Assembly: GCA_036574205.1 (NCBI GenBank)
Contig: JAINCQ010000035.1
Coordinates: 1 to 23,764 of the forward strand
Length of the DNA: 23,764 bases
Reading direction: 5' to 3'
From: Elusimicrobiota bacterium
GTDB taxonomy: Bacteria > Elusimicrobiota > Elusimicrobia > Elusimicrobiales > UBA9959
Shown one piece after another: positions 7,058 to 16,574 of this stretch. The translations under genes were made by a program, and so were the position numbers. Position 1 is the first letter of the stretch. Every line of letters begins with the position of its first letter. A model generated the notes under the pieces. The model saw only the letters and a list, made by a program, of their open reading frames with translations, had not been told where the DNA came from and searched no databases.

Positions 7058-8185
7058 TTAGTAAGATTTAAGCGGCATTACCATATATATCAGATTTGGA
7101 TTTTTATCTATTTTCATCATAGTAGGAGTTGTCGCTCCTGTAAAATTAAACTCAATATTTTTAGAATCTACATTTTTTAATATATCTATAATAAACCTTG
7201 GATTATAAACAACAGTAAACTCTTTAGAATCTCCAGAAAACTCACAATCTATTTCATCTTCAAAATAGACTGATTGAGAAGATGATGTTATAATTAAAAC
7301 ATCTTTTTTAAAAATATACTTAACAAAACCAGTTTTTAAATCCCCTTCGCAAATAACTGCTCTTTTGGTTGAAGCAAGAAGTTTTTCAATATTTATTTTA
7401 GCAGAAGATTCAAAACTTTTTGGTATTATAGTCTCATAAGAAGGAAAATTTCCATCAATAAACCTTGAAATAAATTCCGTATCTTTTATTTTAAAACCTA
7501 TTTGATTTGTTGATATATCAACAAGAATATCATCTTTTTCCTCACAGTTTGCTTTTATAAAATGGGATATATCTTCGAGTATTCTTGATGGAATAACTAC
7601 CTTAAAATCTTTCTTAATACCTTCCTTTATATCCTTTGATATAACGGCAAGCCTTCTACCATCTGTTGCCGCAATAGTAAAGTTATTTTTTTCTTTTTTC
7701 CATAAAAGACCATTTAAAACAGTGTTTTTATCATCTGTTGAAACTGAAAAAATAGTCTTTTCTATCATATCAAGAATACTGAAACTATTTATTCTAAAAG
7801 ATTCTTTCTCGTTTATCGTGGGAATTGCTGGATAATCAGATACAGGAAGTCCAGTTATTTTAACCTTCATCTTTCCAGATTGAACTAAAACCTTATCATC
7901 TTCAGTTGAAATAGTTATTTCACTATCTTTATCAATGCTTAAGATTATGTCATAAAGCTTTTTAAAAGGTATTGTTATCCCCCCTTCTGTTATTATTTTA
8001 AAATCCCCTCTATAAGTATGCTTTATGGCTATTTCAAGGTCGGTAGCGACAAATTTTATAAAGTCTTTTTTTGCTTCTATAAGAAAATTTTGCAAAATAG
8101 GTAAAGAACCAGTTTTAGATTGAACAGCGGTTTGAATTTTGCTTAAACATGTTATAAGATTATTCTGTGATAATAATATTTTCAT
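7058..8185 (-). CDS. dnaN: DNA polymerase III beta sliding clamp
   Basis: LPILQNFLI, ATDLE, ATDGRRLA, G.FP.YE.IIP, YMVMPL; 375 aa; SD GAGGAGG upstream. Confidence 0.97.
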   Translation of the reverse strand: MKILLSQNNLITCLSKIQTAVQSKTGSLPILQNFLIEAKKDFIKFVATDLEIAIKHTYRGDFKIITEGGITIPFKKLYDIILSIDKDSEITISTEDDKVLVQSGKMKVKITGLPVSDYPAIPTINEKESFRINSFSILDMIEKTIFSVSTDDKNTVLNGLLWKKEKNNFTIAATDGRRLAVISKDIKEGIKKDFKVVIPSRILEDISHFIKANCEEKDDILVDISTNQIGFKIKDTEFISRFIDGNFPSYETIIPKSFESSAKINIEKLLASTKRAVICEGDLKTGFVKYIFKKDVLIITSSSQSVYFEDEIDCEFSGDSKEFTVVYNPRFIIDILKNVDSKNIEFNFTGATTPTMMKIDKNPNLIYMVMPLKSY

Positions 8186-9903: not shown

Positions 9904-9912
9904 TGTTATAAT
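9904..9912 (+). promoter_or_regulatory. Extended -10 promoter, probably giving a leaderless mRNA
   Basis: TGTTATAAT (TGn + perfect TATAAT) ends 6 nt before ATG 9919. No SD in front of that ATG. Confidence 0.6.
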
Positions 9913-9918
9913 AATTTT

Positions 9919-11112
9919 ATGAGAATTGAAAATTTTAATTCTATTTTTGGAAAGATAAGTAGTGCTAAAGTCTGGGAATTAAAAGAAAAAATAGAAAGAA
10001 TGAAAATAAATCTTGGTGATATAGAGGAAAAGTTTGTAAAAGGTGGTGGAAAGGGTGGTCAGAAGATAAATAAAACCAACAATGCTGTTGTTCTTAAATA
10101 TAAACCGCTTGCCATCGTGGTGCGATGCCAAAAAGACAGATCTTTGAGTGTTAATAGGTTTTTGGCTCTCAGAGAGCTTATTTCAAAAATAGAAAAAGTT
10201 ATTTTTGAGAATGTGTCAGTTGTAAAAAGTCAAAAAAAGAGAGGTATTTATATGGAAGGGAAAACACTTGCAGAAAAAATTAACCAGGATACCAAGAAAA
10301 TGTCTGAAGAATTTTATAATAGAACTAAAAGAAAACCATTTATTGCTATAATAAATTACTTTGAAGACTCTCCTTCATCTTATTATATGAACCTTAAAAT
10401 CAAAAAATGTAATACCCTTGGTATTGATACCAGGGTTTATATGCCTGAGGATAAGAAAGATAAAAAGGGATTTATTTCTCTGATTAAATCTCTTGGAAAC
10501 GATAGAAATGTTGATGCTATAATGGTTGAAAAACCCCTTCCAGACGGTTTTGATGACGTTGAATTTTGGGATACATTAAATCCCAAAAAGGACGTTGATG
10601 CTCTTTCTTCGGTTAATATGGGAAGGCTTTTTATAACGAGAAATTTTTTGGAAATAGAAAAAGAATATTTTTTTGTTCCTCAAACCGCATATGCCGTTAT
10701 CAAGCTTATGAAATATCACAATATAGAAATATCAGGTAAGAAAGTGGTTGTCTGTGGTAGATCTTCTATTGTTGGAAAGCCAGTGGCTCATATGTTGACT
10801 CTTCTTGACGCAACAGTAACTATTTGTCATTCCAAAACAAGAAATTTAACTGATTACCTTAAATCCGCTGATATAATAGTTTCAGCTATAGGAAAAGCAA
10901 GATTTATCAAGGCTGATATGGTAGGTGAGGGTCAGGTTATAATAGATGTGGGGACAAATATAGATGAAAACGGAAAAATCTGCGGAGATGTCGATTTTGA
11001 AAATGTAAAAAATAAAACATCTTTTATTACCCCCGTTCCGGGAGGAGTGGGTCCTGTTACTCTTGCCTGTTTACTGAATGCTACTGTAAAAGCAGCTCAA
11101 AACCTGCTATAA
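9919..11112 (+). CDS. folD: Fusion of an N-terminal GGQ peptidyl-tRNA hydrolase (RF-1 domain, ArfB/C12orf65-like) and a C-terminal FolD methylene-THF dehydrogenase/cyclohydrolase
   Basis: IEEKFVKGGGKGGQKINKTNNAVVLKY.P..IVV.CQ..RS...NR..A, then in the same frame with no stop EGK.LA, YxxxK, KDVD, GRS.IVGKP, TVTICHSKT, IDVG and TPVPGGVGP.T. ATG 9919 is preferred over TTG 9868. Possible internal start at ATG 10252. Confidence 0.9.
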   Translation: MRIENFNSIFGKISSAKVWELKEKIERMKINLGDIEEKFVKGGGKGGQKINKTNNAVVLKYKPLAIVVRCQKDRSLSVNRFLALRELISKIEKVIFENVSVVKSQKKRGIYMEGKTLAEKINQDTKKMSEEFYNRTKRKPFIAIINYFEDSPSSYYMNLKIKKCNTLGIDTRVYMPEDKKDKKGFISLIKSLGNDRNVDAIMVEKPLPDGFDDVEFWDTLNPKKDVDALSSVNMGRLFITRNFLEIEKEYFFVPQTAYAVIKLMKYHNIEISGKKVVVCGRSSIVGKPVAHMLTLLDATVTICHSKTRNLTDYLKSADIIVSAIGKARFIKADMVGEGQVIIDVGTNIDENGKICGDVDFENVKNKTSFITPVPGGVGPVTLACLLNATVKAAQNLL

Positions 11113-11132: not shown

Positions 11133-11552
11133 ATGAAAAAGACAATAATGTTTTTCATCTCTTGCCTTTTATCTACCATCTTTCTTTTTTCTCAAGTTGA
11201 TTTAAGCCATCTGGCAGATGATAAATCAAAGGAAAAGAAATCAGAGATCAAAGAAGAAAAAACTGTTGTTAAAAAATCTACTGACACAAAAAAAATAAAT
11301 AATAAAAAAAATCTCCCAAGCAAAAAGAATAAACCTGTTAAAAAACAAACAAAAAAGAAAAGTAGCAAAAAGGAAAAATATGTTTTTCAGAAAAAAAGCG
11401 GGGAGATTTACAAATTTGATGAAAAAGGAAATCCTGTTCTGCCAAAAGCAAAAGTTTCAAAGTCCACAGAGCCAAAAAAAAGCGTTTCCACAGATTTAAT
11501 GATAGGGGTTGAAAATAAAGAGGTAAATCTCAATTCAAAGGATGGTAAATAA
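11133..11552 (+). CDS. Hypothetical Lys-rich exported protein
   Basis: SD GAGGT then MKK plus a hydrophobic stretch (signal peptide), followed by a low-complexity K/S-rich body. Its stop overlaps the next ATG (TAATG). Confidence 0.75.
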   Translation: MKKTIMFFISCLLSTIFLFSQVDLSHLADDKSKEKKSEIKEEKTVVKKSTDTKKINNKKNLPSKKNKPVKKQTKKKSSKKEKYVFQKKSGEIYKFDEKGNPVLPKAKVSKSTEPKKSVSTDLMIGVENKEVNLNSKDGK

Positions 11553-12016
11553 TGGATTTACTTGTTAAACTTTATGATGTAATAAATATAAACGAAACCT
11601 CTTTTTTAAAAGACAATAGTATTGTTATTAAAAGAGCAATTGGTCCAGAAAAAAAAATTGTTGTTGAGTGGGTTGAAAAAAATTTTTCTAAAGGCTGGGC
11701 TAGTGAATGCGATGTGAGTTTTTCTCCACTTCCTCCAAGATGTTTTATCGCTATAAAAAATTCTCAGATTATTGGTTTTGCTTGTTATGATGCAACAGCC
11801 AGAGGTTTTTTTGGACCAATAGGTGTTAGAGAATCTGAAAGAAAAACTGGAGTTGGAAAGGTCCTTCTGATTAAATCATTAAAACAGATGTATTATGATG
11901 GTTATGCCTATGCTATAATAGGATGGGTTGGACCGATTGATTTTTTCAAAAAAACTGTTGGAGCGATAGAAATTCCTGATTCTGATATGTCTATCTACAA
12001 AAATATGGTTAAATAA
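11552..12016 (+). CDS. GNAT-family N-acetyltransferase
   Basis: GFACYD...GFFGPIGV.E.ER..GVGK.LL (acetyl-CoA motif A), GYAYAIIG, DFF. Confidence 0.88.
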   Translation: MDLLVKLYDVININETSFLKDNSIVIKRAIGPEKKIVVEWVEKNFSKGWASECDVSFSPLPPRCFIAIKNSQIIGFACYDATARGFFGPIGVRESERKTGVGKVLLIKSLKQMYYDGYAYAIIGWVGPIDFFKKTVGAIEIPDSDMSIYKNMVK

Positions 12017-12050: not shown

Positions 12051-13124
12051 ATGGAAATTGGCATTGTTGGTTTACCTAATGTTGGAAAATCGACCCTTTT
12101 TAATGCCTTGACTAATGCCGGAGCTCAAAGCTCTAATTATCCTTTTACAACAATAGAGCCAAATGTTGGAGTAGTTGGAGTGCCGGACAAAAGGTTGGAT
12201 ATCTTGTATGATATATTTAAACCGCCAAAGAAGACTTATTCATATATAAAATTTGTTGATATAGCGGGTCTGGTAAAGGGAGCTTCTAAGGGTGAAGGGT
12301 TGGGAAATAAATTTTTAGCCAATATAAGAGAGGTTGATGCTATAATTCATGTTGTAAGGTGTTTTAAAGACAGCGATGTTGTTCATGTGCTTGGAGAGGT
12401 TGATCCTGTTAGAGATATAGAAGTAATAGAGATTGAGCTTATACTTTCTGATCTTGAAAGTGTAAATAGAATGATAGATAAAAATTCAGGGGCTGCGCGA
12501 ACAGGTGATAAGGATGCAAAATCAAAAATAGAGAAACTTGAGATTATTAAAAAAACACTTACAGAAGGAAGACTTGCAAAAGAAAGTGGCTTGAAGTTTG
12601 AAGAAATTAAGGAATTTAATCTTCTTACCTCAAAACCAGTCTTATATATTGCAAATACAAATGAAAATCCAGATGAGGATATGTTTAAAAAAATACAGGA
12701 TTATGCTTTGAAAAAAGGCGCGGATGTTATAAAAATTTCGGCTAAGATAGAGTCTGAGATTGTTAAATTAAAGGAAGAAGAAAGGAAAGAGTTTTTAAAA
12801 GAGATTGGAGAGGAATATTCAGGTCTTGAAAAGGTGATAATGGGGGGAAGAAAACTACTTGAGCTTATTTCTTTTTTTACTGTTGGAAGCACAGATGAGG
12901 TTAGAGCATGGAGTATAAAAAGAGGCACAAAAGCCCCACAGGCTGCTGGAAAAATTCATTCTGATTTTGAAAAAGGCTTTATAAAAGCCGAGGTTTATTC
13001 TTTTGATGATATAGCTAAATATAGAGATGAGAAAATTTTAAAAGAGAAAGGTTTGATAAGACTTGAGGGTAAGGATTATGAGGTAAAAGACGGGGATATC
13101 TGTTTTTTTAGATTCAATGTCTAA
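12051..13124 (+). CDS. ychF: Ribosome-binding ATPase YchF (Obg family)
   Basis: [50 protein letters not shown] domain [13 protein letters not shown]...EGKDY.VKDGD..FRFNV. Confidence 0.98.
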
Positions 13125-16048: not shown

Positions 16049-16498
16049 TCAATGGAAGTGTTTAGCGGTTTTGTTGCGCTTACTAGTTGAATCTCCTGCT
16101 GCGCCTGCAACTGTAAGATAAGCGTTTCTTATTCCTTTAACACTCTTTAAAACATTAAATAATTCTTCTATGTTCTTAGCTTCACCTTTTACAATAACTA
16201 TTTCAAAACAATTATCATGATCTAAATGTACATGTTGTGATGAGATAATTATGTTATGATATTTGTGTTGTATGTCAGTTAAAGTCTCTGAAATCATTCT
16301 TTTGCGATGATCATAAACAAGGGAAATTGCTGCAGCTAGAATTCCTCCTCTTATCTTTGATTTTTTAAGAAGATAAGTATTTATTAAATCAGATATAGCT
16401 TTTGAGCGGGTAGAATATTTTTCTTTGCTTATCTGGTTGTCAAATTTTAAAAGCAAATCTTCATCAAGAGAAACTCCAAATCTCCTTAATTTTCCCAT
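16049..16498 (-). CDS. nikR: Nickel-responsive regulator NikR
   Basis: RHH domain RFGVSL...LL..FD......Y..RS.AI.DLI; metal domain VYDH, QH, SSQHVHLDHDNCFE (His-x-His...Cys Ni site). Confidence 0.95.
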   Translation of the reverse strand: MGKLRRFGVSLDEDLLLKFDNQISKEKYSTRSKAISDLINTYLLKKSKIRGGILAAAISLVYDHRKRMISETLTDIQHKYHNIIISSQHVHLDHDNCFEIVIVKGEAKNIEELFNVLKSVKGIRNAYLTVAGAAGDSTSKRNKTAKHFH

Positions 16499-16574
16499 AA
16501 GAATTATTATACAAAATACAATTGATTTTAAAACTGCATTTTTTAAGTATTTTTCTTATAGAGAGGAGAAATTT

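Follow-up and report, generated by a model that had tools for sequence, protein, structure and literature searches.

An in-frame fusion of a C12orf65-like mini release factor to FolD in Elusimicrobiota: a candidate nested two-product gene

Introduction

Why should a peptidyl-tRNA hydrolase domain of the ribosome-rescue kind and the folate enzyme FolD be encoded in one and the same open reading frame (ORF)? This question is raised by a locus of an Elusimicrobiota bacterium (order Elusimicrobiales, UBA9959), located on contig JAINCQ010000035.1 of assembly GCA_036574205.1. The whole stretch of 23,764 nucleotides (nt) that was analyzed is referred to here as the window, and its own assembly (1.85 Mb in 43 contigs, 95% complete) as G000. 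An original prediction, made from the DNA alone, had described a release-factor-type domain with an intact GGQ motif, joined by a short basic linker to a complete FolD, and had proposed that FolD takes the place of the basic tail of a rescue hydrolase, which could couple ribosome rescue or the quality control of initiation to one-carbon status. We report here that the fusion is real, conserved and narrowly distributed, with no assembly slip involved, and we argue that it is fairly probably a nested gene with two products, in which FolD is a passenger or scaffold of a mini release factor (mini-RF).

Codon-independent GGQ proteins have been divided by an inserted helix, alpha-i: those that have it, with ICT1 and E. 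coli ArfB, form 'ArfB class 1', and those that lack it form 'classical ArfB', the group that includes C12orf65 (Burroughs and Aravind 2019, PMC6514570). The C-terminal helix of ArfB senses the empty mRNA tunnel (PMC7641280). Moreover, mtRF-R and the S4-domain protein MTRES1 act jointly on split large subunits to which peptidyl-tRNA is still bound, a substrate that arises on aminoacyl-tRNA starvation, and mtRF-R was inactive on 70S and 55S ribosomes (PMC8786322). The factor that frees nascent chains from bacterial 50S-peptidyl-tRNA without RqcH is stated to be unknown (PMC9757039), and no bacterial C12orf65-like member is described as characterized in the excerpts consulted (PMC6514570, PMC8786322, PMC9757039).

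Results and Discussion

One open frame encodes a GGQ domain and a complete FolD

The gene occupies a single open frame of the forward strand (9868/9919 to 11112), whose start codon at 9919 is common to the relatives (Table 1). Pfam searches detected RF-1 (PF00472) from residue 24 onwards with 60.3 bits, or 62.1 bits when the N-terminal part was searched by itself, against a cut-off of 35, followed by THF_DHG_CYH (PF00763; 79.1 bits, residues 112-227) and THF_DHG_CYH_C (PF02882; 203.8 bits, residues 232-395). As the models of release factors RF1 and RF2 match the mini-RF only through their GGQ-domain part (model positions of about 202-295), the fusion contains no codon-recognition or GTPase-interacting domains. 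The linker peptide, ending in ...SVVKSQKKRGIY, directly precedes Met112 (M112), with which the FolD part begins. The claim of a GGQ domain and a complete FolD in one uninterrupted frame was thus borne out, both by Pfam and by the recurrence of the architecture in relatives, again without stops.

In searches against solved structures, the best matches of the N-terminal domain (N-domain) were C12orf65 chains (2rsm_A, E-value 7.9e-15; 7a5h_C, 2.1e-14), and the values obtained were about 1e-8 for RF1/RF2 and only about 8e-5 for ArfB/YaeJ chains. The NCBIfam ArfB equivalog NF006718 reached 38.9 bits against a cut-off of 100, over residues 26-62 and profile positions 8-44 of 140. An AlphaFold2 model of the fusion (mean predicted local distance difference test score, pLDDT, 91.2; predicted template-modelling score, pTM, 0.72) places strands at residues 35-40, 56-61 and 66-70 and a helix at 76-97 of the N-domain; since only a four-residue turn lies between the last two strands, the modelled domain has no alpha-i helix. 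Judged by these matches and by the model, the N-domain belongs with the classical, C12orf65/MTRFR-like proteins and stands apart from ArfB of the E. coli type. The prediction of a GGQ hydrolase of the ArfB or C12orf65 kind, independent of the codon, is supported, and the nearest solved relatives now point to the C12orf65 side of that description.

The fusion is conserved within one small clade

A stop-free, full-length match to the fusion was found in 4 of 41 related genomes, namely G000, G001 and G002, which belong to the same genus (g1), and G010, from a second genus. Identity to the window fusion is 69-70% in G001 and G002 and about 59% in G010, or 58-70% overall. Across the family, 4 of 80 species genomes carry the fusion. 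A separate FolD is encoded in 75 of the 76 others, the exception (G019) being only 60% complete, and a separate mini-RF match was found in 64 of these 76 genomes and in none of the fusion genomes. In G000 there are three genes with an RF-1 domain, one of RF1 size, one of RF2 size and the fusion, and the FolD of the fusion is the sole FolD-type match. The prediction would have been weakened by finding two separate genes in close relatives; the genes are indeed separate in other genera of the family, but the nearest relatives keep the fusion.

Wider searches led to the same picture. With the N-domain as query (lengths of 218-695 aa, E <= 1e-8), a word-indexed search of 5.8 billion clusters yielded 11 proteins, nine of which have all three Pfam domains (392-402 aa), the window's own included. 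Only one of the best 150 (of 20447) matches in a HMMER search of 1.84 billion representatives spans residues 1-397, the other 149 covering FolD only. Among 72 loci from GTDB species genomes there was one fusion (L044), identical to that of G001, and JGI metagenomes gave one more (L129, 403 aa) among 80 loci kept of at least 509 confirmed. The search for the combination of RF-1, THF_DHG_CYH and THF_DHG_CYH_C that the original prediction had called for therefore shows that it recurs, in 12 distinct fusion sequences from independent assemblies, one of them a 98% copy of another (392/401); DNA is available for five (G000, G001, G002, G010 and L129). In a tree of the FolD domain with 30 rows, the ten fusion rows form one clade (Shimodaira-Hasegawa-like approximate likelihood ratio test, SH-aLRT, 98); L009, P0003 and P0004 (duplicate or near-duplicate of G002 and G001) and L129 were left out of it. 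A single origin is the simplest reading of these sequences.

The GGQ domain is retained and its distal tail is lost

We then compared the fusions with the mini-RFs of other genera of the family, in which the homologue is a stand-alone protein of 111-132 aa with the same GGQ domain. GGQ is invariant in all 11 fusions and all 20 stand-alone homologues, and 24 of the 40 columns that are at least 90% conserved in the 20 stand-alones remain so in the 11 fusions, including G42, G44, GGQ, KxNKT, V57, L59, R74 and NRFxALRxL. Mean identity is 0.65 among fusions and 0.67 among stand-alones. The ratio of non-synonymous to synonymous differences (pN/pS) was 0.30-0.50 for the N-domain, 0.26-0.38 for FolD and 0.38-1.2 for the linker, values to be read as upper bounds because synonymous sites are saturated (pS 0.60-0.82). 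On these sequence comparisons, the N-domain is maintained under purifying selection, with some remodelling.

The C-terminal tail is a different matter. Stand-alone tails, of 23-44 residues with 6-17 Lys+Arg, comprise the conserved segment ISPETSxRLKEIExLRKRK, followed by a polybasic end. The fusions have no positively charged extension with a free end; instead, 14-24 residues (3-8 Lys+Arg) run into FolD, about as many as make up the shortest stand-alone tails (23 aa in L024 and L042). Hence, the proposal that FolD replaces the basic tail holds for the distal polybasic stretch, which is lost, and not for the residues directly after the last helix, which are still kept; aligned in this way, the linker putatively represents what is left of the ancestral tail on its proximal side. 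Its amino-acid identity between fusions is 0-47%. In the model, pLDDT falls below 50 at residues 100-107, and the GGQ loop is also of low confidence, as is usual for such loops. The predicted structure is thus one of two confident domains on a short flexible linker, with no predicted fixed packing. One of the stand-alone genes, L030 (G015:C224), has a tail that diverges after '...EIELRIS' and a genome match with two TAA stops, and is possibly a frameshifted or decaying copy.

Start signals at the two ends of the mini-RF part

The linker had been described as short and basic, and its KKRG residues are indeed present; at the DNA level, however, this stretch is a Shine-Dalgarno (SD) sequence before a retained folD start. 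The Met at which FolD begins is kept in 12 of 12 fusions, and in the alignment M112 of the fusion coincides with the initial Met of separate FolDs (M(K/L)LLEGK). In all five fusions with DNA, an SD-like site of at least 5 nt ends 4-8 nt before the folD ATG, and the residues preceding this Met (KKRG, KRRG and GRRE) are encoded by SDs that differ between lineages (GAGAGG, GGGAGGAG and AGGAGG). Moreover, in each of four fusion genes this ATG is the only one of the 10-12 in-frame internal ATGs with an SD-like 4-mer, against a background of 4.4-5.7% of positions. Stand-alone polybasic tails contain 1.27 SD four-mers per 100 nt, with 5- or 6-mers in 4 of 20; as these tails are not SD-rich, the SD at the junction is not explained by basic codons. 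Together with the contrast to separate folD genes described below, the use of SDs by this genome and the poor conservation of the rest of the linker, these observations argue for a genuine ribosome-binding site at the junction.

Separate folD genes of the relatives start in another way. Among 14 of them (the starts looked at include L010, L012-L020, L022 and L023), only one has an SD-like 4-mer, and in 12 a TAnnnT hexamer ends 6-8 nt upstream of the ATG, in five of them with a TGn extension. This spacing is a candidate for the geometry of leaderless mRNA. In the fusions, the same arrangement is found in front of the mini-RF: a -10-like hexamer lies 6-8 nt before the mini-RF ATG in four of five (TATAAT in G000, G001 and L129; TAAGAT in G002), and none has an SD-like 4-mer there. 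Conversely, leaderless geometry before the folD ATG is seen in none of the five. Most ORF starts in the window carry an SD, and stand-alone mini-RF genes are mostly without one.

A second leaderless candidate in the window consists of TGTATAAT, 7 nt before an ATG without SD (16499-16523, upstream of the ORF 16049..16498 on the reverse strand).

The mini-RF of relatives is linked to relA/spoT

In 12 of 20 loci with a stand-alone mini-RF (L024, L026, L028-L030, L034, L036 and L039-L043), a RelA/SpoT homologue (RSH) of about 480 aa, with HD_4, RelA_SpoT and TGS domains, is encoded directly upstream on the same strand. This linkage suggests, from gene order, that relA/spoT and the stand-alone mini-RF form a starvation-linked rescue module. 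G000 retains the order ABC transporter-rsh (rsh at L116:802-2238), with no mini-RF behind rsh. Since the order folD-small protein-GNAT is common to non-fusion relatives, it was the mini-RF that moved to folD, and not the reverse.

Outside the family, an RSH gene lies upstream of the mini-RF in only 4 of 79 non-fusion metagenome loci, and no general partner of stand-alone mini-RFs emerged from the 118 flanking ORFs of these loci, the largest cluster having five members. Apparent RelA/SpoT-mini-RF fusions in genus g4 (frames of 362-910 aa) were rejected, as their upstream part is an off-frame translation across the rsh gene, which is high in G+C.

A nested two-product gene

Overall, we regard it as fairly probable that two products are made from this locus, one nested in the other, and that FolD is a passenger or scaffold of the mini-RF rather than a sensor. 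The fusion would have arisen a single time, in an ancestor shared by two genera with small genomes, when a stand-alone mini-RF gene left its site downstream of relA/spoT and, as synteny suggests, came to lie between the leaderless-type promoter of folD and the folD ATG. The move would have cost the mini-RF its stop codon and its distal polybasic tail, and folD would then have gained an SD inside the new ORF (10239-10245). To judge from the signals in the DNA, the probable start of transcription is the mini-RF ATG at 9919 or a position beside it. Ribosomes starting at this ATG would produce the 397-aa mini-RF-FolD as a minor isoform, and those recruited by the SD would start at 10252 and produce an ordinary FolD of 286 aa, probably the major product because only the FolD start has an SD. 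The original prediction had been wary of a FolD-sized product being the only one; the internal SD and ATG indicate that FolD is probably also made alone, next to the fusion.

The long isoform would carry the only mini-RF domain of the clade and, by homology, presumably hydrolyzes peptidyl-tRNA in the peptidyl-transferase center. With a 31-kDa domain 14-24 residues behind the GGQ domain, insertion of a free helix into the mRNA channel in the manner of ArfB is implausible. Action on large subunits carrying peptidyl-tRNA, as described for mtRF-R, would fit better, as it leaves the subunit interface open and would be sterically easier for the fusion. The relA/spoT linkage in relatives would fit a starvation context.

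Several points weigh against this reading. The in-frame join has been kept throughout the clade at 58-70% identity, which could mean that the join itself is selected, and which a passenger role of FolD leaves unexplained. An SD is a consensus match and no proof of initiation, and the five fusion genes are related, so that the SD and promoter counts are not independent. G010 has no -10-like hexamer before its mini-RF ATG, and the -10 element before 9919 lacks a -35 match, which is why it was not listed by a generic promoter scan. In addition, positions invariant among stand-alones are altered in the fusions (R76 is Leu in 11 of 11, P62 is lost, and so is the SPxTS motif of the tail), so that the activity or partners of the N-domain may differ. 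Finally, no small S4-domain protein of the Hsp15/RqcP/MTRES1 kind was found in G000, where S4 matches occur only in frames of 203, 253, 304 and 394 aa, so the partner required by mtRF-R is not evident; no NFACT_N/RqcH match was found in this genome either, and SmpB is present.

Alternative explanations

The first alternative is that the join itself has been selected and has created a new bacterial rescue factor. FolD would here stand in for both the polybasic tail and an S4-type adaptor. The factor, which might pair with free FolD in a heterodimer, would bring GGQ to large subunits with bound peptidyl-tRNA, and its activity or abundance would report one-carbon or NADP(H) status in starvation. 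We hold this to be unlikely; if true, the passage from a relA/spoT operon to a leaderless folD-ychF operon would represent a rewiring of starvation-linked rescue, and not an accident.

A coupling in which FolD is a sensor or regulator, tying the hydrolysis of peptidyl- or formylmethionyl-tRNA to 10-formyl-tetrahydrofolate (THF) or NADP(H), or controlling the hydrolase through FolD dimerization, is in our view distinctly unlikely. It would account for the join being kept in 12 of 12 sequences at this level of divergence, when one stop codon would split the genes, and for the fixed changes of the N-domain (R76L in 11 of 11), which could have adapted this domain to its new surroundings; ychF belongs to the same apparent operon, and one-carbon metabolism is already linked to translation through formylation and GGQ methylation (PMC7949028, PMC7264889). 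Nevertheless, the linker is short, poorly conserved and predicted to be disordered, the model (pTM 0.72) gives no signal of inter-domain packing, and a FolD that has evolved its own internal start would mostly be made unfused. The narrow distribution of the fusion, a single small clade that accounts for 4 of the 80 family genomes and for 1 of the best 150 representatives, also speaks against coupling, as does the linkage of the mini-RF of the relatives to relA/spoT and not to folate genes.

It is improbable that the GGQ domain is now mainly a handle on the ribosome, which would place some of the FolD near, e.g., the formylation of initiator tRNA, with hydrolysis secondary or lost. The changes at stand-alone-invariant residues (R76L, P62, SPxTS), the loss of the distal tail and the failure to find an S4-type partner in G000 would all agree with such tethering, but GGQ and all flanking residues of the catalytic loop are invariant in 11 of 11 fusions, which is unexpected for a mere handle. 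Moreover, nearly all of the relatives keep a mini-RF, and the fusion genomes have no copy other than this one; nothing indicates that FolD gains from being placed on the ribosome.

The heptamer A_AAA_AAG is a bacterial slippery site, as in dnaX, and a -1 frameshift at 10233-10239 would yield a separate mini-RF of about 112-121 aa beside the fusion and FolD, a size matching that of the stand-alones. G000, G001 and G002 have the heptamer in register and G010 has A_AAA_AAC, and the -1 frame ends within 7-14 codons in these four genomes. We consider this very improbable nonetheless, given that L129 has no heptamer, that Lys-Lys is missing by the junction in 4 of 11 fusion proteins (P0002, P0006, P0007 and P0009) and from the whole linker in P0006, P0007 and P0009, and that off-frame stops are in any case expected within about ten codons at 33% G+C. 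At 0.80 copies per 1000 codons, and with 327 of the 1265 long open frames containing it, the heptamer is common in this A-rich genome. No SD-like stimulator lies upstream of it, and the RNA around the junction (10190-10300) folds no better than shuffled sequences (z = 0.31), so no significant downstream structure was detected. In genus g1, the heptamer overlaps the SD run, and it is most likely a by-product of the A-rich context of that SD.

Lastly, that the N-terminal part is an artefact of assembly or annotation, or an untranslated, decaying remnant beside which only FolD matters, is scarcely credible: NCBI names P0003 only as FolD and the upstream ATG has no SD, but stand-alone homologues mostly lack one too, all 12 distinct sequences from independent assemblies are open, 111 stop-free codons in every lineage are unexpected by chance at 33% G+C, and the pN/pS of 0.30-0.50 and the invariant catalytic motifs stand against decay.

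The FolD part

A Foldseek comparison of the FolD part with the solved FolD/MTHFD chains listed gave target-normalized TM-scores of 0.84-0.95, with 0.88-0.95 for the bacterial FolDs in the top six; one of these matches, 3p2o_A, had an E-value of 4.7e-30 and a target-normalized TM-score of 0.94. The NCBIfam FolD equivalogs remained below cut-off (best NF010787, 272.7 bits against 423), these models being narrow and lineage-trained. FolD is a dimer in solved structures, and its active site includes the Lys of a YxxxKxK motif and the Gln of a VQLPLP motif, the latter being important for cyclohydrolase activity. The former motif is present in the fusion as YYMNLKIKK. At the latter, all FolDs of the family that were compared, fused or separate, have VE(K/R)PLP (VEKPLP at 10525-10542 of the window), as opposed to VQLPLP in the outgroup FolDs compared, so the enzyme activity may be altered by the change from Gln to Glu. 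In addition, the fusion clade has PQTAYA (about 10678-10695) where relatives have PCTALA.

Genomic neighbourhood

The features of the locus are collected in Table 1. With intergenic gaps of at most 34 nt from folD to ychF, all on the same strand, one transcription unit is plausible, as had been proposed. ychF follows the fusion in G000, G001 and G002, and does not in G010. The order folD, small Lys-rich protein and a gene of about 155 aa is common to relatives with and without the fusion, and the small Lys-rich protein is found after folD throughout the family (e.g., L011:2415-2831 and L012:1010-1489). Upstream, dnaA and dnaN adjoin the fusion gene divergently in G000 and G001, so the locus lies near the presumed region of the replication origin in these genomes; the upstream neighbour is a UvrD-like helicase in G002 and a DUF72 protein in G010. 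It was also observed that ychF shares its apparent operon with a gene that has a leaderless-type start; the title of PMC8138138 reads 'The Universally Conserved ATPase YchF Regulates Translation of Leaderless mRNA in Response to Stress Conditions'.

Table 1. Positions of the fusion gene, its parts and signals, and the neighbouring genes in the window
Feature	Position	Strand	Remarks
Mini release factor-linker-FolD ORF	9919..11112	+	397 aa and stop; Pfam, recurrence in relatives, AlphaFold2
GGQ peptidyl-hydrolase domain, C12orf65/MTRFR-like ('classical ArfB')	9919..10203	+	aa 1-95; PF00472, PDB matches, model, pN/pS
GGQ motif, G46 G47 Q48	10054..10062	+	codons ggt ggt cag
Linker	10204..10251	+	aa 96-111 (16 aa); variable in length and sequence; aligned to stand-alone tails
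folD proper	10252..11112	+	aa 112-397 and stop; 286 aa; ancestral folD start codon; PF00763 and PF02882
SD-like GAGAGGT inside the ORF	10239..10245	+	6 nt before folD ATG 10252
Extended -10-like element TGTTATAAT	9904..9912	+	ends 6 nt before ATG 9919; no SD; candidate leaderless promoter
A_AAA_AAG heptamer in zero-frame register	10233..10239	+	possible -1 slippery site; -1 frame stops 14 codons on
Small Lys-rich protein with hydrophobic N-terminus	11133..11552	+	same operon; no Pfam/NCBIfam family above cut-off
GNAT acetyltransferase-like gene	11552..12016	+	PF00583, 25.8 bits against cut-off 20.7
ychF (redox-regulated ATPase YchF)	12051..13124	+	TIGR00092, 463.8 bits against 279.2; 34 nt past the GNAT gene
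dnaA	8336..9676	-	TIGR00362, 439.2 bits; upstream of the fusion gene, divergent
dnaN	7058..8185	-	TIGR00663, 253.2 bits; upstream of the fusion gene, divergent

Comparison with known systems

The architecture had been thought undescribed, and the combination of RF-1 with FolD was absent from the literature searched on FolD/GGQ and on bacterial C12orf65/ArfB, which was available as excerpts and did not extend to the supplements of PMC6514570. What would be new is this combination itself; fusions of C12orf65-like domains with MJ1316 are already in print (PMC6514570). Neither those fusions nor the other N-terminal partners of FolD join RF-1 to FolD, and no RF-1 domain was found in the other N-terminally extended FolDs picked by length (11 of the best 150 representatives). 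The partners that precede FolD naturally in P0079, P0092, P0108 and P0150 are 5-formyl-THF cyclo-ligase, PurD (GARS), Lgt and DUF7678. Two proteins with an RF-1 domain also deserve mention: P0011 (466 aa) combines an MJ1316 domain (PF04457) with a C-terminal C12orf65-like RF-1, as reported in PMC6514570, and P0010 is an RF-1 protein of 263 aa with a long N-terminal extension. In G017, G018 and G094, FolD matches with internal stops extend back as far as query residues 78-94, and these were taken to be alignment overhang; upstream of folD in G017 (L010) there is no remnant of a mini-RF.

C12orf65/MTRFR and the bacterial 'classical ArfB' proteins (PMC6514570) have, like the fusion, a codon-independent GGQ domain without the alpha-i insert, and the C12orf65/MTRFR plan of a GGQ domain with a positively charged helical tail is matched by the stand-alone relatives in the family. 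The fusion differs from it by having a whole FolD instead of a distal polybasic tail and a free C-terminus, and from the mtRF-R system in that no small S4 protein resembling MTRES1, Hsp15 or RqcP was found in G000. ArfB/YaeJ and ICT1 ('ArfB class 1') likewise consist of a GGQ hydrolase domain and a basic C-terminal extension and are used in ribosome rescue; the fusion stays below the NF006718 cut-off and lacks the alpha-i helix, and by analogy a tail capped by FolD could hardly enter the mRNA tunnel as the free helix of ArfB does. Relative to FolD, both Pfam domains and the fold are shared, and the fusion adds an N-terminal extension of 111 aa.

In infB and clpB, in-frame internal starts give rise to two isoforms. 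The gene described here would differ from these in that its halves are unrelated former genes and its short isoform would be a complete ancestral enzyme, the isoforms being predicted here from sequence.

Conclusions

Altogether, the nested two-product reading of this locus bears on several aspects of ribosome rescue. Bacterial C12orf65/MTRFR-like proteins are widespread, being confirmed in at least 509 metagenome stretches. The fusion is a natural experiment in which a 31-kDa enzyme has taken the place of the distal basic tail, with the catalytic core still under selection, which argues that the distal tail is dispensable or replaceable; it also provides a concrete construct for comparing 70S and 50S substrates. 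On the annotation side, naming such proteins only as FolD, as for P0003, would score the clade as having no ArfB-type factor at all. The locus further suggests that, when a new ORF comes to lie between a gene and its leaderless promoter, this gene can be forced to evolve a Shine-Dalgarno sequence inside that ORF. Finally, the mini-RF gene follows relA/spoT in 12 of 20 loci of the family, which parallels the role of mtRF-R in stalling caused by aminoacyl-tRNA starvation (PMC8786322) and would make of these two genes a testable module of starvation-linked ribosome rescue.

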